From: Shigella phage Ag3
Direction: 5' to 3' (one strand)
Sequence record: FJ373894
Length of the DNA: 64,000 nucleotides
Shown here piece after piece: positions 6,604 to 59,542 of this stretch (within the stretch, counting starts at the first letter, position 1; each line of letters begins with the position of its first letter). A program made the position numbers and the translations under genes. Under the pieces are notes generated by a model. That model did no database searches and was not told the DNA's origin. It saw nothing but the letters and a program-made list of their open reading frames with translations.

Positions 6604-6665
6604 TAAACAAAAGGAGCTGCTATTATAGCAGCCCCTTCATCTATTGAACAGCTTCTGAACTTAAA

Positions 6666-23641: not shown

Positions 23642-23662
23642 CTAATACTAAAGGACAAACAT

Positions 23663-24355
23663 CTATTGATTTACAAAACCTAACCATCCCGCGTCTTCTT
23701 TTGGGTTCCAACCATCTTTGAATTTATTGACCATAGTCCTCAATGAATTGTTCGGAGAGACGAAACCGAAATATCTACCGAGTCTGCAATATCCTTCTTG
23801 TTTTAATTTCCATTTCTCATAGTATTTATCGGCATCTTTCCATATCTTTAACGTGGTGGCGTTGGAAGCTGGGCTTTCCCAAGGAGGAACGCCTTTCATT
23901 TTGGAGTACATGTCTTTCATTTTATCCGGATAAAGTTTATGCATATTCTTCATTCTTTCCGAAGATTCTTTCCTTATATTTGGATTCTCTGAATTCAAAC
24001 GCTTCATCCTTTCCGATCTCATTTTTCTTAATTCAGGATCTTCTTTGCACCTCAGTTTGTGGGCAATTGAGGACTTCCTGCGAAGCCAACCATGAGTTTT
24101 GTTGTTTCTTCCGTTGTGTGGGTTGTAACCACCCATCATGTTGGCGGCGAATATCAATTTCCTGTTGTCTGGGTGCATCTTTACGAGCAAGAGATGAGCA
24201 ACATAATGTTCTTCCGGCGTCAGGCGAACAAGGTTGTCGGGGTTGTCCGAACCACCCATGCATTTCGGCACAACATGATGCAATTCGGAATATCCTTCTA
24301 TGGTTCTTTGTTTGGCTTTGTTGATTAGTGACTGATAGATATTGGCGTAGTTCAT
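23663..24355 (-). CDS. HNH homing-type endonuclease
   Basis: 230 aa; HNH motif HHVVPKCMGGSDNPDNLVRLTPEEH; basic repetitive C-terminal DNA-binding-like region. Confidence 0.8.
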   Translation of the reverse strand: MNYANIYQSLINKAKQRTIEGYSELHHVVPKCMGGSDNPDNLVRLTPEEHYVAHLLLVKMHPDNRKLIFAANMMGGYNPHNGRNNKTHGWLRRKSSIAHKLRCKEDPELRKMRSERMKRLNSENPNIRKESSERMKNMHKLYPDKMKDMYSKMKGVPPWESPASNATTLKIWKDADKYYEKWKLKQEGYCRLGRYFGFVSPNNSLRTMVNKFKDGWNPKEDAGWLGFVNQ

Positions 24356-24418
24356 AGAGCACCTCCATATGCTCTAATTAAGGCGATAACCCAGCATACC
24401 CGAGGGGTGGATAAAGAA

Positions 24419-25844: not shown

Positions 25845-26333
25845 TTAAGCCAGTTTACCCACCAGGGTCTGAACGTCTTTGGCGGTCAGTTTACCCATTT
25901 TGACGTACTGAGCTTTTGCTTCACCACCAGCCGCTTTCACGATGTCTTCGTTTGCGTAGCCTTTCTTAGGGAAGACCATCACAGAGAAGGAACCGTTGTT
26001 CAGTGGGTTCAGCTGGATGCGACCTTTACCGACTACGATGGTGCCGTAAGTTTCGGTGTTCGCTTCGACAACGTGGATGTCGCGGCCCAGGTCTTTCAGC
26101 ATGCCAACTTTGTCGGCAGTCTTAGCAACCACAGCTTTGTCAACCACAACCTGCTCTACCAGGGTGAAGCCGTTGGTCGCTTTCACTTTGCCGTTCAGCA
26201 GGTTCATGAAGGAAGTTTTGCCACCAGTGAAGCCAGCTGCCTGAGCGATGCGGAACATTTCAACTTTAGCAACTTCGGTGTTCAGTTCGAAAGAGATGGT
26301 GCCGTTGGTGATCAGAGTTTTGGTAGTAGCCAT
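25845..26333 (-). CDS. hypothetical protein
   Basis: ORF 25845..26369; start at ATG 26331-26333 (MATTKTL) with GAGGA RBS; promoter-like element and hairpin upstream. Confidence 0.5.
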   Translation of the reverse strand: MATTKTLITNGTISFELNTEVAKVEMFRIAQAAGFTGGKTSFMNLLNGKVKATNGFTLVEQVVVDKAVVAKTADKVGMLKDLGRDIHVVEANTETYGTIVVGKGRIQLNPLNNGSFSVMVFPKKGYANEDIVKAAGGEAKAQYVKMGKLTAKDVQTLVGKLA

Positions 26334-26396
26334 GATGTAATTCCTCATAATGTAGTTGGTTCGTTTCACTTTTCATTCGGCGGTGTGTTGCCGCCC

Positions 26397-26426
26397 TATG
26401 TGAACTATAATAGTGCATCATTATTG
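26397..26426 (-). promoter_or_regulatory. early-promoter-like element (CTTTAC-N18-TATTAT) followed by stem-loop
   Basis: minus-strand -35-like CTTTAC and -10-like TATTAT upstream of gene 25845..26333, followed by GGCGG/CCGCC hairpin at 26369-26385. Confidence 0.35.
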
Positions 26427-26480
26427 AAGAGTAAAGTCTTTTTCAATAAATTTTTAAAATAATTTTGAAGTATTTTAAAA

Positions 26481-29738: not shown

Positions 29739-31658
29739 TCAGATTTTAATCTGCATGTTGCCGCCCAGGGACTGCTCATACTCACTGTATGCGCTCTCCC
29801 CGTCGTCTTTCGCCCACTGGTCAGACTGCTGGGCGCGAGCCAGAGTCATCAGGTTTGGTTCAGTCGGGTTGTAACCCTTGGATTTCGCATCCTGGTACAG
29901 AGTCTGCAGGTACTGGTTGGCGCGGTCAATCTGAGCTTTGAACTCGCGATATGCACCTTCAGTTGTATTGCGGCGGAAGGTGATATCCCAGTCCACGTTC
30001 AGAGTCTGACCATCACGGCTTGCATAGATCTGCCAATCCAGGTCGCGACCTTTTGGAGCGTTGTCGCGGATGGAACCAGCGTATGTTGCAAGGTCAACAC
30101 CAGTCTTCTTAGCAGTATCCGGTTCTTTATCCAGGCGTTCTGTTTCTTTGGACAGGATACCCAACATAAATTCATTGGTGCGGCGATCCGCCATGTCGTG
30201 CCCGCGCCAAAGGACTGAACCGTTGTTGTCAACAAAAATGTCGTCCAAAAATACTTGTTTCGGATTATGTGACGTGCTGTTCAGAGTTTGCATATTCCGA
30301 GATATCATTTCCATTTTAGAAGAAATTTCATCGATCACGGCCTGAACAATATCTTTCTTCAAAGGAAGTTCATATGTCTTCGGATTGTTCAACAGTCGCC
30401 CTTTCTGAGAGATCATCGGCGTGAACGCGACTTTTCCTTTGTCGTAGTAATAGGTCACATTCGTGGTCAATACAGCACCATCATACTTCCCAGTTTTCGG
30501 GAAATTGACACCAGACCAAGTGATGGACATACCGTTGACAGTCTCACCAAACACCATGGCGTTGCGCGGCATCTTCAGGGTTCCAGAGTTGACCAGATCA
30601 GCGCCCTGGGCATTCAGGTCGATAGAACCATAGATGGTCCCGCTACGATCTTTCAGCATCAGGGTCTTGTCGCCCTTCTCTGGGATGATTTCCAGCAGGT
30701 GCTTGCCGCGCAGAGGCTCTTTGTTGAGTTCCAACAGAGCAGTGTTCCCTGGTTTCACACGATTCAGGACAGCGTCGGTCACTTTCAGAGTCCAGTTTGC
30801 GGTCTCAACATAACCCCAACCCTGAGAATGGCGAATACCCTTGATAGGGTAAGGGGCGCTCATCGGCACTGCGCTAATTTCCCATTCGCCGCGATACTGA
30901 TGTTCGGCCACGTATGTGATCGTTTCCATGATTTCGTTTGCCACCCGACGAGCATCGCCAGAGATGACACCAGGCTGAGTTTCGATTTCAGAGAACACGT
31001 TGTAGGTCAGATTCTTGCCATCGACTGAATCGAAGCTGACGATGATCACCAGACCACCTTTAGTTTGATAACGCGCCTGTCCGATCTTCTTAATGCTTTC
31101 CCCTGGGAGATAGCTTGCTTTCTGGTCAATGTTGGTATCAATGATACCCAGAACACGAGCGATGAAACCGCTGTCACGCAATTGATCGATACTGGTTGCC
31201 CCGATTGTGGTGTTGGAGTCAGCTGGCGCGGACTTCTGCTGAGAACCTTTCCAAAATTTTGTGGACGCCGTGGTGAAATCATTCAGGATACTGATAGGGA
31301 CTTGCGGTAATTTCAACTGACGAGCAATGAAATCAGCACTTTGCCCACGCACAGATTTCTCATTCATGTATGCGCCAACATACACGCCTGGCTCATTGTA
31401 GTGGGGAGCGATATTTGCCGTGTTCATGCGGCCTCTCTCCTTACCAACCCATATCAACATGGGTTGATCCCCGTTTGAAGTTAATTTCCATCCGTTGGAA
31501 TCATCAACAGAAGATGAAGCCCCCACATCTGGGGTATTGTCCTGAACCGGAACGTCGCCGACCTTGTCCGGGTCATCCCATGTGATGCCCTGCATCTTCG
31601 GACCGTCGAATACCTGAGCAGGATCTTTACCCTTGCGAACCAGCCATACATAAACCAC
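29739..31658 (-). CDS. large hypothetical protein
   Basis: 639-aa ORF (GTG at 31658; true start may be the downstream ATG near 31595); no recognised catalytic motif. Confidence 0.5.
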   Translation of the reverse strand: MVYVWLVRKGKDPAQVFDGPKMQGITWDDPDKVGDVPVQDNTPDVGASSSVDDSNGWKLTSNGDQPMLIWVGKERGRMNTANIAPHYNEPGVYVGAYMNEKSVRGQSADFIARQLKLPQVPISILNDFTTASTKFWKGSQQKSAPADSNTTIGATSIDQLRDSGFIARVLGIIDTNIDQKASYLPGESIKKIGQARYQTKGGLVIIVSFDSVDGKNLTYNVFSEIETQPGVISGDARRVANEIMETITYVAEHQYRGEWEISAVPMSAPYPIKGIRHSQGWGYVETANWTLKVTDAVLNRVKPGNTALLELNKEPLRGKHLLEIIPEKGDKTLMLKDRSGTIYGSIDLNAQGADLVNSGTLKMPRNAMVFGETVNGMSITWSGVNFPKTGKYDGAVLTTNVTYYYDKGKVAFTPMISQKGRLLNNPKTYELPLKKDIVQAVIDEISSKMEMISRNMQTLNSTSHNPKQVFLDDIFVDNNGSVLWRGHDMADRRTNEFMLGILSKETERLDKEPDTAKKTGVDLATYAGSIRDNAPKGRDLDWQIYASRDGQTLNVDWDITFRRNTTEGAYREFKAQIDRANQYLQTLYQDAKSKGYNPTEPNLMTLARAQQSDQWAKDDGESAYSEYEQSLGGNMQIKI

Positions 31659-32118
31659 GGTCAGGGACAGGCGCGTAGGTCAGGTCCATGACGTTCAGCT
31701 TCTGCTTCAGGCCGGACTGGCGGATGATCTTAGGAATCAGGGTCATCCCGCGTTCCAGCGCTTTCTTAGAGAAGTTGACAGCATAACCATCGATGGTCTT
31801 GCCCAGAGGGGTCGCCAGGAACTGCTTGGTCGCTTCGATCATGGAAGCAATGACGCGCATTGGGTTCTTGAAGCGAGCGATAGCATCAGGATAGACGGAG
31901 CCGCGCTTCTGGCCGATGAAGACCTGACGAACGTTCTTGCCCAGCCCCTGAGGGGTATAGAACTGAATGCGGTATTCCTTTTCATCTTCGTCGATGAAGG
32001 TGAAGAACACATCGCCTGCGTTCTTCTTGCCCATGGTCAGCTCATACGGAGCGGAGTTGAACGCTTCGTCCAACTGATCCTTTTCCTGCATGAACTGAAG
32101 GAAATTTGGCTTTGACAT
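31627..32118 (-). CDS. hypothetical protein
   Basis: ORF 31627..32169, start at ATG 32116-32118 with AGGAG RBS. Confidence 0.45.
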   Translation of the reverse strand: MSKPNFLQFMQEKDQLDEAFNSAPYELTMGKKNAGDVFFTFIDEDEKEYRIQFYTPQGLGKNVRQVFIGQKRGSVYPDAIARFKNPMRVIASMIEATKQFLATPLGKTIDGYAVNFSKKALERGMTLIPKIIRQSGLKQKLNVMDLTYAPVPDRGLCMAGSQG

Positions 32119-32193: not shown

Positions 32194-32529
32194 TTATTTT
32201 TGAACTTTGGCTACCGACATCGCCCAGAGTGGGAGGGTGTGTGAGTCCAGGGCTTCCAGCAGATATTCAATGCGCTCTGACATGATGCCTTCAGGGAAGT
32301 TTACTTCTTCCGGCTCGTTATTGGCCGTCCAGCCCAGAGATAACCCTTCAGCGTGATGGATGATATAAACGAAGTCGCCTGATTCGTAGTCCTTTTCCAT
32401 CAGGTCGAAGAACGCTTCCATCTCTTCGTCGGAGAAATAGTAGATGCGAGGTACAGAGCCGTCAGCAAAGTGCTCAGCGCCCTGGAAGGCAAACATGTCA
32501 TCGGCTGTGAAGTTCTTGAGTTGTGTCAT
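32194..32529 (-). CDS. hypothetical acidic protein
   Basis: ORF 32194..32550; start at ATG 32527-32529 preceded by conserved GGAACTATATC motif. Confidence 0.45.
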   Translation of the reverse strand: MTQLKNFTADDMFAFQGAEHFADGSVPRIYYFSDEEMEAFFDLMEKDYESGDFVYIIHHAEGLSLGWTANNEPEEVNFPEGIMSERIEYLLEALDSHTLPLWAMSVAKVQK

Positions 32530-32551
32530 GATATAGTTCCTTCGGTTCAAA

Positions 32552-32827
32552 TTAACGGCGGAAAGGGCGGTTTGCGTTTTCGCGGTTAGACCAATTCTTT
32601 TCAGCCCGAGCGATAGCCGCTGGACTCCATTCGCGTTCCCACTCTTTGTCTACTTCAGCCTGGTTGGCAGGCTCTACCATTTCAACACCAGGGAAGTCGC
32701 GTGACATGATTTCGCGCAGCTGGGCAGCTGGGGCAGTCTGGGCGTGGATCAATTCTTCGCCGTCGTAAACCTTGGCCATCAGGTATTTCTGGCCGTGGCG
32801 GATATATGCGTCGAGGATAATTTTCAT
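32552..32827 (-). CDS. hypothetical protein
   Basis: ORF 32552..32848 (TTG); probable ATG start at 32825-32827 with AGGAA RBS. Confidence 0.45.
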   Translation of the reverse strand: MKIILDAYIRHGQKYLMAKVYDGEELIHAQTAPAAQLREIMSRDFPGVEMVEPANQAEVDKEWEREWSPAAIARAEKNWSNRENANRPFRR

Positions 32828-32901
32828 GGTGTAGTTCCTGCTTTTCAAGTTGGTGTCGTACTGCTTATGGAATGAAGTATAGGGAAGGATATTGAAGAAG
32901 T

Positions 32902-32921
32902 AAAGGGGCGTTTGCCCCTTT
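32902..32921 (-). terminator. terminator hairpin
   Basis: AAAGGGGC-GTTT-GCCCCTTT 8-bp stem with flanking T-run. Confidence 0.55.
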
Positions 32922-32934
32922 TATTGAATTATTT

Positions 32935-43362: not shown

Positions 43363-44046
43363 TTACACCTCCACCGCGTGAGACTTCAGGAGTTCATCAA
43401 TCGCTTTCTGTCCCATATAAGAGAATGGGGTGCGCTGGTAGAATGCCCACAGAACCAACTGAACGACAGCGCGGGAACGGGTTTCGGCTCGCATCACCAG
43501 GTCGCTGAAATGAGGAGACTGCGCCGTCCATTGGATCTCTTCGCCCAGGTCTTGATTACAGGTCACGGAGATGCGGAACTTGTTGCACAGATTGTCGACT
43601 TCTTTGTACGCATCGGTAGACACCCGAAGTTGGTCTGCATGCGCCCATGGTGTCGTGACGATTCTTTCACCCATCACTTTATCAGAGATAAACCAATCAA
43701 TGGATTCAACAAACTTGCCGAAATGGTCGATGCGATAAATGCAGTCTCCCCCTTCCATAGAACGCATGGCATGATAGCGAGCGTCGATTTCGTTGTTGTG
43801 CATCGCGTTGAAGTCGATGAACACGCGACGCGCCAACACAACATCTTCCGGCTCCAGAGGGATGTATTCCCCTTCGTTGCTAGACCTCCGGATGTTCGGA
43901 TAATGTAGAATGCCGCTTAAATGCCCAGTGCAATATACATAACGAGGTCCAACACCCCCGACACGAGCATGAGCGACATAGGATGGTTCTGTGAATCGCA
44001 AGTGGCCTTGATCGGCACCGACGATAATAGAATAAAGTTTTTCCAT
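43363..44046 (-). CDS. hypothetical protein
   Basis: ORF 43363..44061; ATG 44044-44046 preceded by conserved AGACTATATC motif and 5-prime hairpin. Confidence 0.45.
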   Translation of the reverse strand: MEKLYSIIVGADQGHLRFTEPSYVAHARVGGVGPRYVYCTGHLSGILHYPNIRRSSNEGEYIPLEPEDVVLARRVFIDFNAMHNNEIDARYHAMRSMEGGDCIYRIDHFGKFVESIDWFISDKVMGERIVTTPWAHADQLRVSTDAYKEVDNLCNKFRISVTCNQDLGEEIQWTAQSPHFSDLVMRAETRSRAVVQLVLWAFYQRTPFSYMGQKAIDELLKSHAVEV

Positions 44047-44068
44047 GATATAGTCTCTCAAATGAAAA

Positions 44069-44092
44069 GGGCGACCTTATGATAAGTCGCCC
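44069..44092 (-). promoter_or_regulatory. leader stem-loop upstream of gene 43363..44046
   Basis: GGGCGAC-cttatgataa-GTCGCCC 7-bp stem. Confidence 0.45.
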
Positions 44093-44103
44093 GAGGTTAT
44101 TGA

Positions 44104-45012
44104 TTATTGGAAATCACCAACATACATGTTCAGCTTGTCATCCCAGTTCAGAACAACACGGATCGTTGCGGTATCTTCTGGGAAGGTCAGTTTGTCACAC
44201 ATGGCGCGATTAACATAAGTCCCACTCTGGTTCACGTTGTAGTCCTTGCCTTGCATGATACCAAAACGCTTGAAGTCCCGTGTCACCATCATGTTCAGGG
44301 TCGCCCATGGGAGTGATTCACGCAATGCTTTACACAGGATAATCTTTCCATTCGGCCTGAATGATACAAACAACTCATTAGCAACCCGGCGGCGGGTGGG
44401 CGCCTCGAGTTCGCGCAGGGAGATAAATTCAGAGGGATCGTCCAATGCACCCAGGGTGATCATGTCTTCGCGAACTTTATTGACAATTTCAGTTACTGCT
44501 GACACGACTTCAACTGCCGGATTCGTCTTAAATGGCTCAACAGTCGTGGACATCTTGGATACAGACATCCCGTTGCCGTTGCGCTTCTCTGCATATTGCT
44601 CGACGGACTTGTCGCTCACTGGAGGCAGTTTGGTGGCAGGAGTTATGACCGGGCTTGCATCTGGTTTCGCCTTTGGAGTACTCCGAGCCGCACGCAGCTT
44701 TTCCTGGGCTTCCAGAATGCGCTCTTGACGAGAAAGTGGAGCCTTTGGGGTGATCTTCGTACTGAAGTCGGAAACACCCACCCAGTCACCCTGGTCATTA
44801 CGCTTGGCGACCAGAGTCAGTTTGTGGATGATGCCCTGAAGTTTGCTCTCACGCAAGTTGTCGGCATACCAGAACTTCGCGCCCATCTCGAACTTCTCGG
44901 CGAAGATCACGCGAGCGTCTTCGTGCACCAACATAACTTTGGCTGTGTTGGGGGCAAAAGCCTTATTCTTTTCGATAATCGCCGCAGCGATTGATTTGGT
45001 CAGGAGCATCAC
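44104..45012 (-). CDS. hypothetical protein
   Basis: 302-aa ORF with Pro/Lys-rich central linker. Confidence 0.45.
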   Translation of the reverse strand: MMLLTKSIAAAIIEKNKAFAPNTAKVMLVHEDARVIFAEKFEMGAKFWYADNLRESKLQGIIHKLTLVAKRNDQGDWVGVSDFSTKITPKAPLSRQERILEAQEKLRAARSTPKAKPDASPVITPATKLPPVSDKSVEQYAEKRNGNGMSVSKMSTTVEPFKTNPAVEVVSAVTEIVNKVREDMITLGALDDPSEFISLRELEAPTRRRVANELFVSFRPNGKIILCKALRESLPWATLNMMVTRDFKRFGIMQGKDYNVNQSGTYVNRAMCDKLTFPEDTATIRVVLNWDDKLNMYVGDFQ

Positions 45013-45060
45013 AGTGTATTCCTTCAGTTCACAATGTAGGGCTAAATTTTAACCCGAAAC

Positions 45061-45378
45061 TTATTTTTGAAATCCGACAAAGTCCTGGGCAATCCCCCGA
45101 CAATACATCAGATCTTTCTTCGTTTGTGGGCTGTTATCAGCCGCAGTCAGCATCATGGGAAGATCCAGCGCATTCTCTATCTGATCAACACTGAACAGAT
45201 CAAGGCGCTTCAGCTCTCCCTCGAAGTCAGACAGGAGGATAGATGTATCTTTGTCGTCTGGATGGAATTGCTGATACGTCTCCATCCAGGCGGCGCAGGT
45301 ATTCAGTTTAGACGGTGGTGTGGCGTTTACACACCCGGCCATCAGTAACAGCAGGAGTAGGATTTTACCTTTCATCAC
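45061..45378 (-). CDS. lipoprotein (lipobox LMAGC)
   Basis: 105 aa; N-terminal signal with lipobox, three additional Cys. Confidence 0.5.
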   Translation of the reverse strand: MMKGKILLLLLLMAGCVNATPPSKLNTCAAWMETYQQFHPDDKDTSILLSDFEGELKRLDLFSVDQIENALDLPMMLTAADNSPQTKKDLMYCRGIAQDFVGFQK

Positions 45379-46061
45379 TCGTTCTCCTTCATCATATTGT
45401 CGCAGTCAACACGAGTCTGCTGGAGTTCGCGCGACATGCGAGGATCATCAAGGTTCACGCTCAGATTCGTGGCCAAGTCTTTCAGACCGTTCTGAACACG
45501 ATCCTCAAAATAATGGTCGTTCTCAACCAGCCAGGCTCTGAGGCCAAGAGCGCGAGTACGCCATTCCTTCTTCAGGACGCGATCAGAGGTCTGCGTAGCG
45601 CTGTATTCGAATACTTTGATGCACTGATTGCCATCGTTGATGAGGTTCAGGTGACGGCGGCCTATCTGCACACCCTTCTGTAATGCCGGAGAAGGGAGAG
45701 AACGGCACTGTCTGACTGTCATTCGGCCTTGGGTGCCCATACGCCCAGTCATGATAAGATCGCCAGCCTCCATGCCGCCTCGATTAAATTCATCGTCATT
45801 GAGGTAGCCCTTGAGGTTATAGGCTCCCTGTTTGTAACGGTTGAACTCAATCCCAGCATTGACCACAGCAGTGGAGACGTTGCCCGTGTTCCAGAGTTCA
45901 GCAAAGTTCTCTATGGAACCAGACTTGTCGATGGCGACTGCCTGGGAGAACCCAGCACAGTAGGAAAGATCAGACCACAGTTTGTCACCTGTGGAGTTCA
46001 GCTTGGCGGCGGCGGGTAATGCCAGACCAGCCAGCACGACCCCGAGGATTAAACGTTTCAT
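45375..46061 (-). CDS. secreted periplasmic protein
   Basis: ORF 45375..46154, start at ATG 46059-46061 (MKRLILGVVLAGLALPAAA) with GGAG RBS; cleavable signal peptide; stop overlaps lipoprotein start. Confidence 0.5.
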   Translation of the reverse strand: MKRLILGVVLAGLALPAAAKLNSTGDKLWSDLSYCAGFSQAVAIDKSGSIENFAELWNTGNVSTAVVNAGIEFNRYKQGAYNLKGYLNDDEFNRGGMEAGDLIMTGRMGTQGRMTVRQCRSLPSPALQKGVQIGRRHLNLINDGNQCIKVFEYSATQTSDRVLKKEWRTRALGLRAWLVENDHYFEDRVQNGLKDLATNLSVNLDDPRMSRELQQTRVDCDNMMKENE

Positions 46062-46140
46062 GGTGATTCTCCTTATTTCATTGGATGAAATGATAGGTGG
46101 CTCACCATGTTGAGTAAAGGGTTTCAATAAACTATCGTAT

Positions 46141-46599
46141 TCAGAAGCGAGCATCAGACACGGTTCTGAACTTCACACCCTTGAACTGCTTGGCGACCTT
46201 GACGAACTCCATCGCTGGCATGTCCACTTTGTAGACCTTGATGCGCTGGCGGTCATCCATGTTCAGAGCGGCCACATAGCGGTGTGAGCCGTCGACCACG
46301 TAATTGTCAGAAGACACCCAAACTCGACCCATGGGCTTCTTGTTCCGGATGTTCTTCATGATCTTCCAGACCTTCATCTTGTTGATTTCGTTCTGAGTGA
46401 GACGGAGGGATTTGATTGGAACCTGGCCAGCGTCGATAGTGATGCCAAGTTCCTCCAGGTAGTCGTGGAACGCCTGCTGCTTGTCATCGTCAATCTGCGG
46501 CATAGAAGAACGAGAAAGCCCGAGGTTTCCAACAGGAATCCTCAGGCCGTTGATAATGTTCAACCAGTCTATGAAGGAAGACATGAACATGAGATTCAC
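46141..46599 (-). CDS. ParB/sulfiredoxin-like domain protein
   Basis: 152 aa; DGSHRY motif resembling ParB N-terminal domain DGxHR. Confidence 0.4.
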   Translation of the reverse strand: MNLMFMSSFIDWLNIINGLRIPVGNLGLSRSSMPQIDDDKQQAFHDYLEELGITIDAGQVPIKSLRLTQNEINKMKVWKIMKNIRNKKPMGRVWVSSDNYVVDGSHRYVAALNMDDRQRIKVYKVDMPAMEFVKVAKQFKGVKFRTVSDARF

Positions 46600-46623
46600 C
46601 TCGGGATATGGATTATCCCTTAG

Positions 46624-46815
46624 TTAGCGCATCCAGCGATCCTTTCTCTCTTTCTCCTTGCGTTCGCGACGTTTCTGGTCGGATCGGAATAACCAATAGA
46701 AGAAGTTCCCACCCAAGATGAAAACCACCGCGATTATTACCAGGACACCCTTCACAATTTCCCAAACCAATTCTTTATCCAAATTATACCTCGTCTTCTT
46801 CAGGTCCACCATCAA
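46624..46815 (-). CDS. small single-pass membrane protein with basic C-terminus
   Basis: 63 aa; one TM segment then RRERKEKERKDR tail. Confidence 0.4.
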   Translation of the reverse strand: MMVDLKKTRYNLDKELVWEIVKGVLVIIAVVFILGGNFFYWLFRSDQKRRERKEKERKDRWMR

Positions 46816-47071
46816 TCAGGATACGAGCGGTGTCGAAACCTTCCCCGCCTGTGTTCAACAGCTTGGTCAGATCATCAAGGGTGTCGACAGGACCAAGATC
46901 AGCCTTGCGCAGAATGAACTCGAGAAGGCCGTAGAGCGCTGTTTTGTACCGTTCATTGTCGATATCGTTTTTGACTTTCATTAAGTCAATAATCGCGTCT
47001 GTCTCCCTGAAACCTGTTTCAACTTCACTGCGCACCATAGAGAATAGAGCGAGTTCTTCGTCCCTTTTCAT
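46784..47071 (-). CDS. hypothetical acidic protein
   Basis: 95-aa ORF. Confidence 0.4.
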   Translation of the reverse strand: MKRDEELALFSMVRSEVETGFRETDAIIDLMKVKNDIDNERYKTALYGLLEFILRKADLGPVDTLDDLTKLLNTGGEGFDTARILIDGGPEEDEV

Positions 47072-47442
47072 AACGTACCCCCGACAGAGATCAAGAACTC
47101 TTCTTCAATGGTCGTGACAGGGCGGCGGTTGCGGGTTTCGATCATGAAGCCCCAGCCGCCGTCGGCGACGTTGCCAAAGGTCTTGACGCCAAAGGTCTTC
47201 GTCCTGTTGGAGCAGGCATAGAAGTCCAGGATGAACGGACTGCCCTGATTGTCGATCCCACGGTTTACGCCGTCCGATACGCAGCGCTCAATCATCTTCC
47301 CGTTCTTATACAGAACGAGGTCTTGGCCATACGCCTTGAAAGCATAAACGCCGTTGGTGGACACTCCGGTAATCACAGGAGGAGCGGAAACAACAGCGAA
47401 GGAAGCGCCCAGCAGGGCAACAGCGAGGATTAACTTTTTCAT
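47068..47442 (-). CDS. secreted protein with signal peptide
   Basis: ORF 47068..47463, start at ATG 47440-47442 (MKKLILAVALLGASFAVVSA); preceded by AGACTATATC motif and hairpin. Confidence 0.5.
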   Translation of the reverse strand: MKKLILAVALLGASFAVVSAPPVITGVSTNGVYAFKAYGQDLVLYKNGKMIERCVSDGVNRGIDNQGSPFILDFYACSNRTKTFGVKTFGNVADGGWGFMIETRNRRPVTTIEEEFLISVGGTL

Positions 47443-47466
47443 GATATAGTCTCTTGATTTCAAATG

Positions 47467-47488
47467 GGCGAGGCAATCATACCTCGCC
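47467..47488 (-). promoter_or_regulatory. leader stem-loop upstream of gene 47068..47442
   Basis: GGCGAGG-caatcata-CCTCGCC 7-bp stem. Confidence 0.45.
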
Positions 47489-47501
47489 GGAGTTTATAGA
47501 A

Positions 47502-47741
47502 TTAACTGATATGCTTCAGAAGAGCGAAGAGGATCGCGGCCTTGGCCTTTACCTTTCCCACGACGCCTGTCTCGACATCAACTTCTTCAGCAACCCACTC
47601 TTTGCCCTTCTTGCTGATGATAACGTCACGGCGCTGTGCGTAGACTTCTTTGGTCGCATACACACGGCGGAACCCCTTTGCGCGCAGCAAGCCCCAATTG
47701 CGATCAATCTCTACTGAAGTTTCGACCATTTTGTTCTTCAT
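47502..47741 (-). CDS. hypothetical basic protein
   Basis: 79 aa; preceded by early promoter, 5-prime hairpin and AGGACTATATC motif. Confidence 0.5.
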   Translation of the reverse strand: MKNKMVETSVEIDRNWGLLRAKGFRRVYATKEVYAQRRDVIISKKGKEWVAEEVDVETGVVGKVKAKAAILFALLKHIS

Positions 47742-47763
47742 GATATAGTCCTGCTTTCAAACA

Positions 47764-47782
47764 GGCGGGAACTATTCCCGCC
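47764..47782 (-). promoter_or_regulatory. 5-prime leader stem-loop downstream of early promoter
   Basis: GGCGGGA-actat-TCCCGCC between -10 box and RBS of gene 47502..47741. Confidence 0.5.
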
Positions 47783-47793
47783 CCAGAATTTGA

Positions 47794-47822
47794 ATTATAC
47801 GTGAGTTATTGAAGAAGTAAAC
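47794..47822 (-). promoter_or_regulatory. T4 early-type promoter (GTTTAC-N17-TATAAT)
   Basis: on minus strand GTTTAC (47817-47822) and TATAAT (47794-47799) separated by 17 nt, followed by 7-bp stem-loop and RBS of gene 47502..47741. Confidence 0.5.
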
Positions 47823-47837
47823 CGTTATTCAATATTC

Positions 47838-48122
47838 TTAACTTCTCTCCCAGATGTCTTCCAGGACATCACGCATATTTCTGAGTTCCGGAGTATCACC
47901 GAAGAAAGTTTCCATTTCCCCCTCTTCACCACCCGCCAACAACCAGAATGAGCTGTCAAGGTCTTCTGGGTCTTCTTCGTGGAAGAAACCCTGCTCAACC
48001 ATTTTGATGATAGAAGGTTCGGCGCGCTTGAAGTCCTTTTCTGTCACCACATCAGAGTAGTCGAACTGGTTGTCATAAGACATGATGGAAATGATCTTAT
48101 CAAATATTTCTTTGCTGGTCAT
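47838..48122 (-). CDS. hypothetical acidic protein
   Basis: 94 aa; preceded by hairpin and AGGACTATATC motif. Confidence 0.5.
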   Translation of the reverse strand: MTSKEIFDKIISIMSYDNQFDYSDVVTEKDFKRAEPSIIKMVEQGFFHEEDPEDLDSSFWLLAGGEEGEMETFFGDTPELRNMRDVLEDIWERS

Positions 48123-48142
48123 GATATAGTCCTGATTTCATC

Positions 48143-48161
48143 GGCCTTCACAATGAAGGCC
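48143..48161 (-). promoter_or_regulatory. leader stem-loop upstream of gene 47838..48122
   Basis: GGCCTTCA-caa-TGAAGGCC 8-bp stem followed by GATGAAATCAGGACTATATC-ATG. Confidence 0.5.
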
Positions 48162-48196
48162 GTCTATTGAATAATAGCGGGTGTTTATCTAAAGTA

Positions 48197-48220
48197 AAGC
48201 CCCAACAAATGTTGGGGCTT
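48197..48220 (-). terminator. terminator hairpin downstream of ACP-like gene
   Basis: AAGCCCCAAC-AAAT-GTTGGGGCTT 10-bp stem. Confidence 0.55.
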
Positions 48221-51360: not shown

Positions 51361-53004
51361 TCAGATTTGTGAGGCCAGTTCCGCCACCAGAGGAGCGGCG
51401 CGGACACGCGCATCTTCCAGAGTTTGAGTGTTGAAGAACTTGCCGTCACGATACACCAGCTGGTGCTGGTTGTCGGCGTCTTGTACCTGATCAAAGGTGA
51501 TACCGTCAACCAACACTAGTTTACCCTGAGAGTCTTTAATGACTTTAAGGAAACCACGCGCAGACTTTTTAGTCCCGCCTTTATCGGTCTTCGGCTCTTT
51601 GAAGATCTCACGGAATTCACCGTTCACCTTACCAGCCGTTGCTTTCACCGCCGTGCCAGTACTGTCACGGGTGTTCATCTGGTAGGTGTAGGAACCGATA
51701 CCGAACACCACGTTGATGGAAGCGAAGTTCCGGCCAGCCAGACGGCTAAAGATCTGGTCTTCACGCGCCAGGGTGATGGAGTCGCCGTAAATCAGACCGA
51801 TGTGTTCGTCCAACAGGAAGTGGCCAGTTTCGGTCTGGGTCCCGCCAAAGATCTCCCACAGGCGCTGGATAGAGCCGACTGCTTCAGAACGGCTGATGAT
51901 ATTACGGTCGTCTGCCATCAGAGAGTTGATCGTGCCTTCGCCTGTAATCAGGTGATAGGTGTTCGTCTCTTCGATGTGAATGACTTCGGTGCTGCTAGAC
52001 ACGCCGCTGATGTTCAGCGTGGCGCGGTCTTTGAACCCCTCAATTCGGTAGCCGCCGACGATATGAACTGGGTCGCCCGAGTCAGGGCGGATCACGACTT
52101 TACCGTTACGCGCCATGATAATATCTTTCAGGCGCGGCAGATAGTCGTCGATGACCTGCCAGTAATCCCACGCATCAGACACGATGCTGACGATGCCATC
52201 AGGATACACGTCCTGCACCAGGCGGCGGAAGGTTTCGAATTCGCCATCCTTCGTACCCATACACATCACGGCGTGTTCGGTAGCCGCAACAGAACCAGCA
52301 ACGACATAGTCTTCGTCGATGTCTGCGCCATAATACTCTTCAACGAACGTGCGCCCACCGTCGCAGATATCATCGACCACCACCAGATAACGGTCTTTGA
52401 TCAGTTCAGGGTTTGTAATGCTCACCCCAATGATCTCACCAGTCTTGGTGTCACGGTTCTTGTGTCCGTAGACAACAGGAACGCCATCCAATGACAGGCT
52501 GAGGGCTTCGGTCTTCTTCGCCGCGCCGCCGTCAGGAGCTACCAGCACAGCGTTGTTCCCACGGATGAACCAGCCCAGATACTGCCGCACGATGTAATCT
52601 TGCGGGACAACATGGACGTTGTTGATCAGAGAAGTCACAACATGGCTGTGAGGGTCTTTGATCGCCACACGGTCAAAGTTCATGCTATTGATGAACTCAG
52701 CCGCCCACTTCACGGACAGAGGCTCTCCGAAGTCGCAATGGCGGTCCTGGCGAGCATACGGGAAGTAAGGGATATACGCATGGAAGGTCGTCAGACGGTC
52801 CACGTTACCCAGGCCGCGCACGGCGTTAACCAGCAGTGCCAGCTCAACGAAGTCGGCTGATGATTTGATGTGGGCATCAATCACCACGTTCTGGACGTGG
52901 CCGACAGGGATACCAGCCTTTTGGATCTTGATATGTTCCTCACCACCTGGGAAGGTGAAGTGTTTGTAGAACACATCTTGGTCGTTCAATTTCAAACGAA
53001 ACAT
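51361..53004 (-). CDS. fusion protein: ribose-phosphate pyrophosphokinase-like N-terminus joined to nicotinamide phosphoribosyltransferase-like C-terminus
   Basis: 547 aa; residues ~1-225 carry Prs motifs (FPGGE, PYFPYARQDR, VLVAPDGGAAKK, VVVDDICDGGRT); residues ~226-547 match the NAMPT C-terminal half (YYG..VAATEHA, VSIVSDAWDYW, RPDSGDP). Confidence 0.75.
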   Translation of the reverse strand: MFRLKLNDQDVFYKHFTFPGGEEHIKIQKAGIPVGHVQNVVIDAHIKSSADFVELALLVNAVRGLGNVDRLTTFHAYIPYFPYARQDRHCDFGEPLSVKWAAEFINSMNFDRVAIKDPHSHVVTSLINNVHVVPQDYIVRQYLGWFIRGNNAVLVAPDGGAAKKTEALSLSLDGVPVVYGHKNRDTKTGEIIGVSITNPELIKDRYLVVVDDICDGGRTFVEEYYGADIDEDYVVAGSVAATEHAVMCMGTKDGEFETFRRLVQDVYPDGIVSIVSDAWDYWQVIDDYLPRLKDIIMARNGKVVIRPDSGDPVHIVGGYRIEGFKDRATLNISGVSSSTEVIHIEETNTYHLITGEGTINSLMADDRNIISRSEAVGSIQRLWEIFGGTQTETGHFLLDEHIGLIYGDSITLAREDQIFSRLAGRNFASINVVFGIGSYTYQMNTRDSTGTAVKATAGKVNGEFREIFKEPKTDKGGTKKSARGFLKVIKDSQGKLVLVDGITFDQVQDADNQHQLVYRDGKFFNTQTLEDARVRAAPLVAELASQI

Positions 53005-53114
53005 AATGTAGCCTCATGGTGTATTGTACAGCCGTATTATACTGTGATGCACAAATTGAAACACCCAGCAAATATACTGGGCGTCATTGATATTGAAGGA
53101 GTTTGATAATTCAG

Positions 53115-54767: not shown

Positions 54768-56786
54768 TTAGAACACAACTTTCACAGTGCGGTTGAACGA
54801 GCCGCTCACCTTCACGAACACGTGGTTGCGTTGGGTGGTAGAGAAGCCCAGACCGGACAGCTGCTCAGTGCTTGGCTGTACTTTAATCTTACCGCCTAAC
54901 ATTTCAAAAACCTTGCGGTGTTTATCAAGTTCCGGCTTCAGATATTCGTTGTAGAAGCCACGAGTGCCGACAGGGTTAGCACAACCTTCCAGGATGAAGA
55001 ACACGTGCTTGTTGCCCGTCTGCTCGCCGTCCCAATGGTTTGGTGAGTTCAGAACCAGCTGCACTTTCTGGAATACCGAGGTCTTGATGCCCCAGATTTC
55101 CTGCGAGCGTTCGTCGTCCTTCAGGGTAGAACGGATGTCTACCACTTGTCCAGCGCGGACATCAATCACAACAGCCAGAGTGCGATCTTTGTGCTTCAGG
55201 CCAGGATGCGAAAAACGCTTGGTCTGGCCTTTGTATTCAACTTCGATTTCGAAGCCCATATCACAGGTTTCACGCTGGCTGAAGTTAGTGACATAGAACT
55301 CGTACAGACCATCACGCAGCTTGCGTTCATCGCTGAAGAAGATGTTCTCCACCGGGCGGCGGTTGGGGTCAATACCGTCCATACCGTTCATGTCGATATC
55401 CAGGGTTGCGCCAGTTGCCGAGCGACGGTTGTGGTAATACACATGATTGTGTAAAGGATCGTTCAGGCTCAGATCCAGGTCATCGTTGTTATGCCACGCC
55501 AGGGACACACGGAGGAAACCGTCAACGTTGCCGCCTGCCGTCTTCACGCGCTCTTTGATGGAGTCGGCCACTTCACCGTTGTATGACCAGCTGAAGCCGT
55601 TGTTCCACTTGAACAGGTTAGGAGCGCCTGCGGTAGCCGGGGCGATCAGGGACATCAGGTTGCCAGTGTGAGAGTTTTCAACCAGCACTTCCAGGGAATG
55701 CGCCTTTGGCAACACGTTGGTCAGGAAGTCGTCGATGGTGATTTCTTCAACCTTGTCCAGGGACTTGGTCGGAGTCTTCACTTCAGACGCCAGCTGAGCA
55801 AACGGGTCCATCTTCTTCTGCGCTGCCAGGTCGGCAAACAAAACGTTGTTGATGGTCAGGTCGTCATATACAGCATAACGGCGGCCAAGGGATTCGGTCA
55901 GACCCAGCGCTTCGACTTCTTTCTGTGCGTTTTCAATCATGGACTTCGTGACCAGTGCAGTCGGGCGCTTATAGTTCTGAGGAGCGACTTTGGCTTCAAA
56001 GGACTTCACGGCGGTTTCCAGATCCCGACCTTCGTTGAGGTCTACCAACAGAGAGCCAATCACGGTATTACGGATGCCGTGAGGGGTGTGTCCGTTTGCA
56101 CGGTAGCCAGTACGCCAAGCCCACAGAGCGCGTTTCTCTTCTGCAGTTTGTTCGTACAGGGTCTTGCTCGTCACGAACGCCTGCACAGCAGCTTTGTGCT
56201 CTTCACCACGATACAGAGAATTCTGATCAATCAGTTCCAGAACGATTTCGGCCGATTCCAGAGACAGTTCACGCAGGCCGCGCTCAAACACTTCAATCGC
56301 CTGGCGGATTTCACCCTTCTTAGAAGCGATGACATCAGCCCGCAGAACATAGCTGGGCAGCAGGTCGGTGTGGAAGTGGTTGTAGGTGCGGACATTACCG
56401 TCTTTCATTTCGTGATTCGACTCAACACCGACTTTCTTGGTATCGTTGAAGTACACGTCGACGATTGCGTGTTGCTTGACATACGCAGACAGCGCCGCAG
56501 CGACAACGTCGTATTCGTTACCCAGCTGAATGTTATCCCAGATAGAGATCACGTTCAGGTCGGCGTCGATGGTCACCACACCGCCGATGTTACGGATGAA
56601 TTGTTTGCAGCAGGTGCAGTCGTGCTCGGTACGCTCACGGTAAAGCGGGTTGGTGCCAGCAGGGAAAGAAGACAGATACAGATCCCACAGAGCATCTTTA
56701 TCGATGTTGGTCATGAACAGACCAGTTGCTGACATGGCCAGCACGTTGTTATTAACAGCTACTGCGAAGGGCTTAAATTCTGACAT
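54768..56786 (-). CDS. large hypothetical protein
   Basis: 672 aa; no Walker or polymerase motifs recognised. Confidence 0.5.
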   Translation of the reverse strand: MSEFKPFAVAVNNNVLAMSATGLFMTNIDKDALWDLYLSSFPAGTNPLYRERTEHDCTCCKQFIRNIGGVVTIDADLNVISIWDNIQLGNEYDVVAAALSAYVKQHAIVDVYFNDTKKVGVESNHEMKDGNVRTYNHFHTDLLPSYVLRADVIASKKGEIRQAIEVFERGLRELSLESAEIVLELIDQNSLYRGEEHKAAVQAFVTSKTLYEQTAEEKRALWAWRTGYRANGHTPHGIRNTVIGSLLVDLNEGRDLETAVKSFEAKVAPQNYKRPTALVTKSMIENAQKEVEALGLTESLGRRYAVYDDLTINNVLFADLAAQKKMDPFAQLASEVKTPTKSLDKVEEITIDDFLTNVLPKAHSLEVLVENSHTGNLMSLIAPATAGAPNLFKWNNGFSWSYNGEVADSIKERVKTAGGNVDGFLRVSLAWHNNDDLDLSLNDPLHNHVYYHNRRSATGATLDIDMNGMDGIDPNRRPVENIFFSDERKLRDGLYEFYVTNFSQRETCDMGFEIEVEYKGQTKRFSHPGLKHKDRTLAVVIDVRAGQVVDIRSTLKDDERSQEIWGIKTSVFQKVQLVLNSPNHWDGEQTGNKHVFFILEGCANPVGTRGFYNEYLKPELDKHRKVFEMLGGKIKVQPSTEQLSGLGFSTTQRNHVFVKVSGSFNRTVKVVF

Positions 56787-56901
56787 GATGTAGTCTTCCT
56801 GTTTCAGTTCAAATGTGCGCCCCGTTTGCCAGGGCGCTTCGTTTAAGTGAGGTCAATAATACGTTGAAAAAAGTTATTGAAGAATGAAGTAAAGGGAATC
56901 T

Positions 56902-58122
56902 TTATTCAGGTTTCTTCAAACGGTCCAGCAAATTGACGGAACCACGTTTGAGCACGACTTCATCACAGCGCTTTTTGTATTCCCCACCGCCGTCATAGCT
57001 GACCTTGCCCCGAGGTTTTTCGCCGCGCCCAACCGCCTCAACACAGCGAGTGTACTTGCTCAGTTCACAGAACATGTTCTCCAGCTGCATAACGTTCATG
57101 CATTGGTCTACAGGCTCTTCGGCCGACCAGAATTGCTCGCGAACATACCCATATTGGGAGTACACTGCGTCCTGATTATCCCGTAGCCAGAATATGCATT
57201 CTTCGTGAGTCATGCCGTCCTTGTTCAGGAACAGCAGATCAATACCTGCGCGACAGCCCGGTCCGGCGATCGTGAAGTGGTTCTCACTGAACGGATAACC
57301 AGGCATGTACGTGAAGTCAACCCAGATCTGGTATGCCAGGAATGGACCAAGACCTTCGATGTCGTCGTACATGCGCTGGTATACTTCCAGAGGAGTACCA
57401 AGGCGCAGCAGGTCATGGAAGTAATTTGGATACTTGTTGACGAATGCCTTCAGGGAACGGATGACACGCATTGGCATGTACGGCTCCCAGCCTTCTATGG
57501 TGTAGAAGTCCGGCTCTGCTTCAGCAATAGCCTTGGCTTCCTTATAATCCATGTTCTGGGTCGAACCGTCCTTACAGATCAGGTTCACCATCATCCCACC
57601 GAAGCGCTGCTCTTTGTGGTTGACAACCAGCTCAGGGAAAGCCAGGCATTGCTTCAGACCGCCTGTGTTGAAGGCATTGGTGAATACTTTACCGCCGTCG
57701 GCCTCGAACTTCTGAAGTCGTTCGCGGGTTGCGTCAAGGTTGATCTTGGCGAATTCTTTGATCGTCATCGCGCCGCCGATAGCCTGGATCGGATCCCAGA
57801 GGTTGAACATGCGGAACAGAACGCAGTTGAACATCTTGTCTGCCATGCCCAGAGCATCGTTCTTGACGATGTTATTGATCAGGTTGAGAGACTGCCTGTC
57901 GTGCTCTCTCCGGACGTTACAGAACTTGACCTGCCGTAGTATAGGATTATTGGTCCAAGGGGCAGGAAGACGCTGGACGTCCTTCTTGACGTGGATCTTA
58001 TAGCGCTCGCTCATCCATTCGTAAGACAGGCGGGTATGGGTCGGACTGAGAACCGGTTTGGCCGACTTTATCTTTTCTTCACGGACACCGCAGTACGGGA
58101 CGTCCAGGGCTTTATCTTTCAT
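56902..58122 (-). CDS. hypothetical protein
   Basis: 406 aa; no recognised motif. Confidence 0.5.
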   Translation of the reverse strand: MKDKALDVPYCGVREEKIKSAKPVLSPTHTRLSYEWMSERYKIHVKKDVQRLPAPWTNNPILRQVKFCNVRREHDRQSLNLINNIVKNDALGMADKMFNCVLFRMFNLWDPIQAIGGAMTIKEFAKINLDATRERLQKFEADGGKVFTNAFNTGGLKQCLAFPELVVNHKEQRFGGMMVNLICKDGSTQNMDYKEAKAIAEAEPDFYTIEGWEPYMPMRVIRSLKAFVNKYPNYFHDLLRLGTPLEVYQRMYDDIEGLGPFLAYQIWVDFTYMPGYPFSENHFTIAGPGCRAGIDLLFLNKDGMTHEECIFWLRDNQDAVYSQYGYVREQFWSAEEPVDQCMNVMQLENMFCELSKYTRCVEAVGRGEKPRGKVSYDGGGEYKKRCDEVVLKRGSVNLLDRLKKPE

Positions 58123-58191
58123 GGTATCCTCTTAGAATACGAAAAACAGAGGCCATTATAGCCTCTGTTGTTTAGTGAATAACTGTATATC

Positions 58192-59077: not shown

Positions 59078-59542
59078 TTATTCGCTTTTGGCCTTTGTAG
59101 GCCGGATAATGTATTTTGGGACCAGCTTCCATTCAGGAACCTGATCGTGTTTAACCACTTTAATGCGTGACATATCGGCGGCTTCGGTGACCTGCTCGGG
59201 ATGAATGACCTTCACCATGTTCCACTGCTCAAGCAGCTTGATGATGCGGTTCATCCTCAGGACATCTTCGCGGTTAAACCCGTTGTAATGTCCGTCCAGC
59301 ATAAACAGATGCTTGAAGTGGACGATATAATACTTGCCATACTTATGAAGAATATGACAAGTCTGATACAGAGTATTCGGCTCTTGGCGCGTGTTTACCC
59401 CAATTCGGCTCAGTGTTTCCTTGATCCCCAGGAATATTCCTGGCCGATCTTGGTTCAATTGAACTTCAACCATACAATCAACGATGCTGGCCTCATCGTT
59501 GACGGCTGAAATGTTCAATATGTCTAGCGTATTGCGCGCCAT
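59078..59542 (-). CDS. regA: translational repressor RegA
   Basis: 154 aa; YQTCHILHKYGKYYIVHFK and C-terminal EWKLVPKYIIRP match T4 RegA; position after gene 62 as in T4. Confidence 0.85.
   Translation of the reverse strand: MARNTLDILNISAVNDEASIVDCMVEVQLNQDRPGIFLGIKETLSRIGVNTRQEPNTLYQTCHILHKYGKYYIVHFKHLFMLDGHYNGFNREDVLRMNRIIKLLEQWNMVKVIHPEQVTEAADMSRIKVVKHDQVPEWKLVPKYIIRPTKAKSE

Follow-up and report, generated by a model that had tools for sequence, protein, structure and literature searches.

A recurrent translation-start box in Shigella phage Ag3 as the 3' end of a predicted expression cassette resembling the promoter early stem-loops of T4-like phages

Introduction

Promoter early stem-loops (PeSLs) have been described in the T4-like phages RB49 and phi1 (PMC2839356) and in the pairs T4/PST and KVP40/nt-1 (PMC4122927). 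The 3' end of a PeSL consists of a Shine-Dalgarno sequence (SD) and a start codon, and the crossovers in RB49 were mapped between the -10 element and the ATG (PMC2839356). The promoter consensus of the T4/PST elements is TTTACW-N17-TAYWAT (PMC4122927). The translational repressor RegA of T4 likewise acts at start codons; about 30 early mRNAs are bound, at unstructured sites that cover the AUG or lie just 5' of it; SELEX gave the consensus AAAAUUGUUAUGUAA for T4 RegA and repeats of the UAA triplet for RB69 RegA (PMC3014915). Here, a stretch of 64,000 nucleotides from Shigella phage Ag3 (record FJ373894, hereafter the window) was analysed, in which a nearly identical start region, CTATATC-ATG (the box), precedes several small open reading frames (ORFs). 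The initial annotation had offered two explanations for it, a shared mobile cassette junction or a common operator for a translational regulator such as RegA.

The window is part of an Agtrevirus genome (Ackermannviridae, ViI-like) and is about 98% identical to Salmonella phage P46FS4, the closest relative used as complete-genome reference. The two are co-linear, and most proteins are 96–100% identical. The minus strand carries most genes of the window, including a T4-like replication cluster (45-44-62-regA), and homologues of UvsX, UvsY and gp46/47 are present; phages of this kind have a full T4-type recombination apparatus. Ackermannviridae are widely used in biocontrol and diagnostics, but almost nothing has been described of their gene regulation: promoters go unmentioned in a 2024 review, the AG3 and LIMEstone genome papers list only generic promoters and terminators, and our literature search found no paper linking PeSLs with Ackermannviridae.

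Results and discussion

The start box is recurrent and marks gene starts

Six copies of CTATATCATG were found in the window, each of them on the minus strand and at an ORF start (ATG at 18595, 32529, 44046, 47442, 47741 and 48122), which bears out the recurrence first reported. Only 0.07 copies are expected, and six copies were reached in none of 100 dinucleotide-preserving shuffles. Four further sites with one mismatch (8764, 39807, 56784 and 59059) are also on the minus strand and all precede ORF ATGs, and the related GGAACTACACC-ATG is present at 32827 as described initially. An ORF of 79–227 amino acids (aa) follows each exact box, and an SD (GGA or GAGA) ends 7–8 nt upstream of the ATG. 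The box is not equally frequent away from starts. CTATATC is found 10 times in the window against 3.2 expected, six of them at these starts, and the remaining four copies are about at chance level. In the whole P46FS4 genome, CTATATC is found 21 times and is followed by ATG in 8 cases, of which 7 mark the start of a gene and have an SD. Among the 89 genes, 0.03 exact boxes would be expected from a position weight matrix of the other 83 gene starts, and the looser pattern TAYAYYATG occurs 16 times against 2.4 expected, about 13 times at gene starts. The generic context ..ATC-ATG is common (14 of the 89 genes). The last seven bases exist in other alleles, namely CTACACC, CTACATC, AATACATC, ATTACATT and ATTATATC, and CTATATC is the commonest.

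Independent features of the products favour genuine starts at three of the six sites. PHROG profiles align from residue 1–2 of the proteins starting at 18595 and 47741, and the product starting at 47442 has a typical signal peptide at its N-terminus. In the RefSeq record of P46FS4, the homologue of the 18595 gene starts at a TTG (window 18667) that lies within a TTTACT promoter, and the homologue of the 47741 gene starts at an internal ATG (window 47729). The box-associated ATGs look like better starts than these, fitting the PHROG profiles. For annotation, the box pinpoints true start codons, and the close relative has at least two RefSeq starts that look misplaced.

The box forms the end of a dispersed cassette

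Judged from the alignments, the box makes up the 3' end of a cassette that is dispersed in the genome, is about 50–100 nt long and has a predicted promoter, hairpin and leader. The full cassette opens with a terminator hairpin and the T4-type early promoter TTTACT-N16/17-TAYWMT; a GC hairpin may follow in the 5' untranslated region (5'UTR), and then come (T)TTGAA, AGGA as SD, CTAYAYC and ATG. The codon after the ATG is often ACN (Thr). (T)TTGAA lies upstream of each box, and a GC-rich hairpin, a sigma-70-type promoter or both lie further upstream. Scanning for TTTACT-N16/17-TAYWMT gave six predicted promoters on the coding strand of the window (Table 1) and nine in the whole P46FS4 genome. In both, nearly every such promoter is followed by a leader of 28–72 nt ending with ..TGAA..AGGA(A).(C/A/T)TA(C/T)A(T/C)(C/T)-ATG. 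The consensus of the aligned cassettes is CTTTACTTCTTCAA..CCCTATAATTCA..TGAAAAG.AGGAACTACATCATG, and the region of the predicted transcription start, TCATTCCATAAGCAG.AC.ACAC, is common to cassettes 37 kb apart.

In three cassettes (94-aa ORF, 91-aa ORF and hyp98) a predicted terminator hairpin stands directly upstream, its T-tract serving as the -35 element, and in several (94-aa ORF, hyp56) a second hairpin begins 2–5 nt past the predicted mRNA 5' end. 5'UTR hairpins also accompany the copies before hyp58, hyp65 and the 672-aa ORF. Promoter-less copies consist of hairpin and leader (hyp58, hyp65) or of stop codon, SD, box and ATG alone (the short internal leader between the 91-aa and 111-aa ORFs). 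The window has at least 9 copies and the whole P46FS4 genome at least 13; each stands before a hypothetical small gene or denV and ends with AGGA/GAGA, a 7-nt spacer and ATG. The conserved block is longer than the 11–12 nt of the initial annotation: on its upstream side it includes (T)TTGAA, hairpin and promoter, and downstream it reaches into codon 2. Rfam, searched with the whole window, gave no match. TTTGAA as a stand-alone genomic signal was rejected: it occurs 59 times in the window, mostly within coding sequence, and is meaningful only between hairpin and SD.

Table 1. Cassettes and related leaders in the window. Promoters and terminators are predictions.
Feature	Position	Strand	Sequence and remarks
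Full cassette, 94-aa ORF 47838-48122	48120..48220	minus	terminator hairpin 48197-48220, T-tract overlapping -35
94-aa ORF cassette, promoter	48171-48198	minus	TTTACT-N16-TATTAT
94-aa ORF cassette, 5'UTR hairpin	48143-48161	minus	GGCCTTCATTGTGAAGGCC
94-aa ORF, leader	48120-48142	minus	GATGAAATCAGGA-CTATATC-ATG
Full cassette, 79-aa ORF 47502-47741 (hyp56 family)	47739..47821	minus	promoter TTTACT-N16-TATAAT, 47794-47821
hyp56 cassette, 5'UTR hairpin	47764-47784	minus	
hyp56, leader	47739-47763	minus	TGTTTGAAAGCAGGA-CTATATC-ATG; orthologues in other genomes ATTATATC-ATG
Hairpin cassette, 124-aa signal-peptide ORF 47068-47442 (hyp58)	47440..47501	minus	hairpin GGCGAGGTATGATTGCCTCGCC, 47467-47488
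hyp58, upstream box	47492-47501	minus	TTCTATAAAC
hyp58, leader	47440-47466	minus	CATTTGAAATCAAGAGA-CTATATC-ATG
Degenerate member, hyp62	46059..46118	minus	promoter TTTACT-N17-TATCAT, 46090-46118; leader ..CAATGAAATAAGGAGAATCACC-ATG
hyp65 (227-aa ORF 43363-44046)	44044..44092	minus	terminator-like hairpin 44069-44092 with T-tract
hyp65, leader	44044-44068	minus	TTTTCATTTGAGAGA-CTATATC-ATG
Variant-box full cassette, 91-aa ORF 32552-32827	32825..32922	minus	terminator hairpin 32902-32922
91-aa ORF cassette, promoter	32876-32904	minus	TTTACT-N17-TATACT
91-aa ORF, hairpin-less leader	32825-32875	minus	ends with TTGAAAAGCAGGAA-CTACACC-ATG
Short internal leader	32527..32554	minus	TAA-TTTGAACCGAAGGAA-CTATATC-ATG; between 91-aa ORF and 111-aa ORF 32194-32529
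Variant member, hyp89	26331..26435	minus	promoter TTTACT-N17-TATTAT, 26407-26435; hairpin 26379-26396
hyp89, tandem box units	within 26331..26435	minus	..CAACTACATT-ATG-AGGAATTACATC-ATG
Full cassette, 153-aa ORF 18134-18595 (hyp98)	18593..18694	minus	terminator hairpin 18672-18694
hyp98 cassette, promoter	18646-18674	minus	TTTACT-N17-TATACT
hyp98, leader	18593-18645	minus	ends with AAATTGAAAGCGGGAA-CTATATC-ATG
Variant member, 672-aa ORF 54768-56786	56784..56837	minus	hairpin 56817-56837; leader ACATTTGAACTGAAACAGGAAGA-CTACATC-ATG

Could the box itself be a promoter at the DNA level, with TTGAAA as -35 and TATATC as -10 element, or a variant of a late promoter? TTGAAA matches TTGACA at five of six positions and TATATC is -10-like. 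However, the two hexamers are 7–9 nt apart instead of 16–18, and a transcript starting 7 nt past TATATC would begin inside the ORF, beyond its ATG. The late-type boxes of the window differ, (C/T)TAAATAcc, and the distance from box to ATG is fixed at 0 nt. Given this spacing and position, we rejected a sigma-70 or late promoter at the box and regard it as extremely improbable.

Tandem units, in which a box-ATG is followed by AGG..box-ATG, were observed at 26331-26354 and 53002-53027 (minus strand) of the window and at about 99860 of P46FS4; they look as if an SD-box-ATG module had been joined directly behind an older box-ATG. Many leaders open with ATGAA or TTGAA, which resembles the ATGA 3' of the box.

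The cassettes resemble PeSLs

At the level of sequence the Ackermannviridae cassettes show every feature by which PeSLs are recognised, and they would extend to this family the mechanism described for T4-like phages. Like PeSLs, they combine a terminator stem-loop, a sigma-70-type early promoter and a 3' SD with start codon, the activity of promoter and terminator being predicted here, and TTTACT-N16/17-TAYWMT matches the T4/PST consensus. They too are present in many dispersed copies among small accessory ORFs, the ORFs flanked by them differ between close relatives by insertion, deletion or replacement, and the RB49 crossovers between -10 and ATG correspond to the junctions found here. The host family differs, being Ackermannviridae and not the T4-like group. 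Downstream of the promoter many copies carry a second GC hairpin, within the 5'UTR, the last 25 nt or so (TTGAA..AGGA.CTATATC.ATG.ACN) are unusually uniform and reach codon 2, and truncated promoter-less copies also serve as junctions. A further trait of PeSLs is that neighbouring copies recombine to give mini-circles.

Taken together, we consider it probable that these are expression cassettes of the PeSL type, whose uniform SD-spacer-ATG end acts both as the translation start of early accessory genes and as the homology for their exchange. The first gene behind such a cassette would be transcribed early and would owe it an open translation start.

Accessory genes are exchanged at the leader ATG

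Gene exchange was followed by comparing the window with P46FS4. The two differ in gene content at about seven places, three of which break at a leader ATG, and leaders precede only about one tenth of the genes. The first lies between hyp80 (the helicase-side gene) and hyp82 (the large gene). Window 33700-32823 is 96% and 32185-31549 is 97% identical to P46FS4; the left break, 32823, is the A following the ATG (ATGA), and the right break is at the stop codon. Between them the window has two ORFs, of 91 and 111 aa, with a second short leader in between, and P46FS4 has one unrelated ORF of 123 aa. The short internal leader can itself be aligned with the P46FS4 leader, as a second match (28 nt, 93%). 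Other genomes have the 111-aa ORF right behind the promoter cassette, and in other genomes the promoter and leader of the 91-aa ORF precede three other unrelated ORFs.

The second concerns denV, which P46FS4, EspM4VN and LIMEstone1 have and the window lacks. A direct repeat of 17–18 nt, the box with its ATG, bounds the indel. Genomes with denV have a complete hairpin cassette before denV and TGA-AGAGACTATATC-ATG before the next gene. In other genomes the hyp58-type cassette precedes denV, a 168-aa ORF or a 92-aa ORF. The hyp56–hyp61 interval holds zero, one or two extra ORFs depending on the genome, each with its own cassette copy. In ChubbyThor an unrelated 168-aa ORF takes the denV position between two full hairpin cassettes, and elsewhere this position holds the 92-aa ORF, alone or in tandem with the 168-aa ORF. 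ORFs flanked by duplicated cassettes were seen in ChubbyThor, L096 and L071. The third is the 94-aa ORF, which is absent from P46FS4. Together with a whole second promoter, hairpin and leader it replaces a different small ORF, which in P46FS4 stands behind the equivalent promoter. The alignment resumes exactly at the hyp56 ATG, with the break at 47738/47739.

The hyp98-type leader precedes an unrelated 77-aa ORF in other genomes, and across IMG/VR genomes three leader types each stand before 2–4 unrelated ORFs. The repeated cassette, and the identical leaders that continue, precisely from the ATG, into unrelated ORFs, support the first of the two original explanations, a shared mobile cassette junction. 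Under the PeSL-type reading, crossovers between near-identical copies would lead to the insertion, deletion or replacement of accessory ORFs, joined at the start codon, because the copies are near-identical up to the ATG and the phage encodes active recombination (the UvsX, UvsY and gp46/47 homologues), and each incoming ORF would be immediately expressible behind the cassette. PeSL-type shuffling common to Ackermannviridae and T4-like phages would explain how accessory gene sets diversify. For engineering, the cassettes would be pre-tested natural insertion points, and a payload placed right behind CTATATC-ATG should gain early expression.

The arrays also invite comparison with integrons, the leader being the attachment site of a dedicated site-specific recombination system that maintains an integron-like ORF array in a virulent phage. 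As with attC sites, a variable number of single-ORF cassettes (0–2 ORFs) is found at one locus behind an upstream promoter, each with its own conserved hairpin-containing element, and the junctions are precise at the ATG and the repeat strand-specific. However, no integrase or recombinase was noticed beside the arrays, where the annotated neighbours are small hypothetical proteins. The junction positions vary (TTTGAA, -35 or ATG), which fits homologous or microhomology exchange. Unlike attC, the elements hold expression signals (promoter, terminator and ribosome-binding site), and in a virulent phage with its own T4-type recombination apparatus homologous recombination is the simplest explanation. 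A site-specific system is thus very unlikely.

The leader is conserved in relatives

Relatives of hyp58 were collected by a related-locus search of IMG/VR, which gave five loci only, and then by tblastn of a phage collection. The hyp58 hairpin cassette is kept in Agtrevirus, Limestonevirus, Kuttervirus and Taipeivirus. In Taipeivirus, where the identity of the hyp58-type protein drops to about 50%, the hairpin GG(A)CGGGGTATGATT(A/G)CCCCG(T/C)C, an invariant ATTTGA and GAGACTATAT(C/T)-ATG survive. Across 15 copies, 99.3% of the cells of the hyp58-cassette helix are paired, with two compensatory pairs. The pairing and the survival in Taipeivirus indicate that this leader is under purifying selection and is not merely a recombination scar. 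The box of hyp65 (44044) is identical in all seven genomes compared, and its SD part is variable.

When IMG/VR was scanned with the pattern, all contigs with more than one match were 154–164 kb long, which is the genome size of Ackermannviridae. Contigs with a single match were near the random expectation (about 50 matches, about 65 estimated). Among the singletons, about 16 contigs of unrelated sizes outside Ackermannviridae have TTGAA..GGAACTATATC-ATG before ORFs of at least 40 aa, about twice the number roughly estimated for chance; other phage groups may have start regions of a similar kind.

Such contigs would also fit the proposal that the box is simply an optimal translation start, reached repeatedly by convergent selection without shared ancestry and without a role in recombination. 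Ordinary genes of the window prefer T, A, T, A, T at -6 to -2 and A or C at -1 (modal spacer aTATAT(a/c)), and the box therefore resembles an idealised general start region. The frequency of ATC before ATG and the lower opening energies of box starts (see below) point the same way. Against convergence, the similarity between copies runs far past the start region, through TTGAA, hairpins and transcription-start region (the element shared over 37 kb) to the promoter, the alignments between genomes break exactly at the box, and duplicated cassettes flank inserted ORFs. Convergence alone is therefore unlikely.

Translation start, codon 2 and the RegA question

In centroid folds the SD-box-AUG segments are unpaired, and the two hairpin-less leaders fold worse than their shuffles (z +1.6 and +1.2). 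The opening energy of positions -14 to +3 has a median of about 4.1 kcal/mol for 12 box-family starts versus 5.7 kcal/mol for 76 other genes (p = 0.009). Accessibility as the sole explanation of the box was rejected, as this difference is modest and mean unpaired probability shows none.

Several points weigh against the PeSL-type cassette as a full account. Four of the roughly seven differences in gene content from P46FS4 do not involve the box. Simple deletion of denV was tried and rejected, since a single crossover between the two flanking box copies does not give an exact match to the window junction. The advantage of box starts in accessibility is modest, and their mean unpaired probability does not differ from that of other genes. 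The leader and ORF sets from IMG/VR were chosen by exact pattern and are unusable for measuring box conservation, and the literature search found neither a transcriptome or ribosome-profiling study of Ackermannviridae nor a description of these leaders. Moreover, two features of the start are not explained by recombination alone. The 7-nt spacer is more invariant than the adjacent SD, and Thr (ACA/ACC) is codon 2 in 9 of 16 unrelated cargo families of Ackermannviridae versus 5 of 83 other genes (Fisher p = 9e-6). The cargo ORFs considered are those behind the window boxes at 18595, 32529 and 48122 and at loci L024-L096. The two features could point to an extra constraint on about -12 to +6, either ribosome-related or from a bound factor; for the part reaching about +6 the alternative is that the cassette contributes ATG-ACN to the ORFs it captures. 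Near-invariance of the spacer and the Thr bias also raise the question of a dedicated translational regulator.

RegA was the regulator named at the outset, and a RegA-type repressor is indeed encoded in the window (59078-59542, minus strand, 154 aa; Pfam PF01818, E 1.9e-34; structure 1REG, E 3.8e-26). It keeps T18, R21 and W81 of T4 RegA, two of the five RNA-contact residues are changed (K14 to G and F106 to H), and its N-terminus is longer than in T4 by about 23 aa, so it could have another specificity than T4 RegA. In this alternative GGA(A)CUAUAUC-AUG-AC(A/C), with AGGAACUAUAUCAUGACA as candidate RNA, would be an RNA operator through which RegA or another RNA-binding protein shuts off the cassette-borne early genes together. 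The conserved block is unstructured, spans the AUG and reaches codon 2 in unrelated ORFs; T4 RegA sites are likewise unstructured, lie at the AUG and belong to early genes. The spacer is also more invariant than the SD.

The box as a RegA operator nevertheless found no positive support. The start regions of the 44, 45, 62, regA, rIIA, rIIB, dexA and cd homologues contain no CTATATC, an indirect test of the regulon of this RegA, and the rIIB start (GGGAACTACAAG-ATG) and rIIA start (..TCTATACT-ATG) resemble the box only weakly. The box is unlike the sequences selected by T4 or RB69 RegA, and T4 sites have no clear consensus whereas the block here is nearly invariant. Its distribution tracks the promoter/hairpin cassettes and the swap junctions, already explained by the cassette, and the modal spacer of ordinary genes makes it look like an idealised generic start. 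We leave a small but real chance to an RNA operator, a role that could be compatible with, and possibly additional to, that of the cassette. The more specific proposal, that the 16-nt block is a dedicated operator for one phage protein, with the divergent RegA as the most obvious candidate, appears rather unlikely. If it is true, capture behind a cassette would at once give an ORF early transcription, efficient initiation and a timed shut-off of its translation, and the cassette would be a plug-in module for both expression and silencing of accessory genes.

Other sequence features

Two further kinds of box were observed. TTCTATAA(A)(A)C stands just 5' of hairpins and leaders that lack a sigma-70-type promoter, at 47492-47501, about 8830 and about 39840 (minus strand), and the genes behind it are hyp58, hyp114 and RNase H. 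The distinct late-type box (C/T)TAAATAcc precedes gp5, endolysin and UvsW. The two may represent two classes of non-early promoters. Terminator-like hairpins with TATAAT in the loop are located on the minus strand at about 6613-6635 (GGGGCTGCTATAATAGCAGCTCC), before the small terminase gene, and at about 58147-58167 (CAGAGGCTATAATGGCCTCTG), before ORF 56902-58122; they recall the PeSLs of RB49, where stem-loop and -10 element overlap.

Other differences from P46FS4 were also noted. At 51361-53004 (minus strand) an ORF of 547 aa joins the N-terminal 222 residues of phosphoribosyl pyrophosphate synthetase to residues 227–554 of nicotinamide phosphoribosyltransferase through an in-frame deletion of 864 nt with about 8 nt of microhomology, and both halves are seen by Pfam. 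It may be an inactivating deletion of the pair for nicotinamide adenine dinucleotide salvage or a real fusion. Between the endolysin and PhoH genes, an insertion of 732 nt (23643-24374) does not use the box and carries a 230-aa ORF (23663-24355, minus strand) with no Pfam match. At 29739-32118 (minus strand) the homologue of the 816-aa ORF82 of P46FS4 is split in two overlapping ORFs (ATG 32118 to 31627, and 31658 to 29739) and its middle part is strongly diverged (65% identity), which may reflect a frameshift or a real split.

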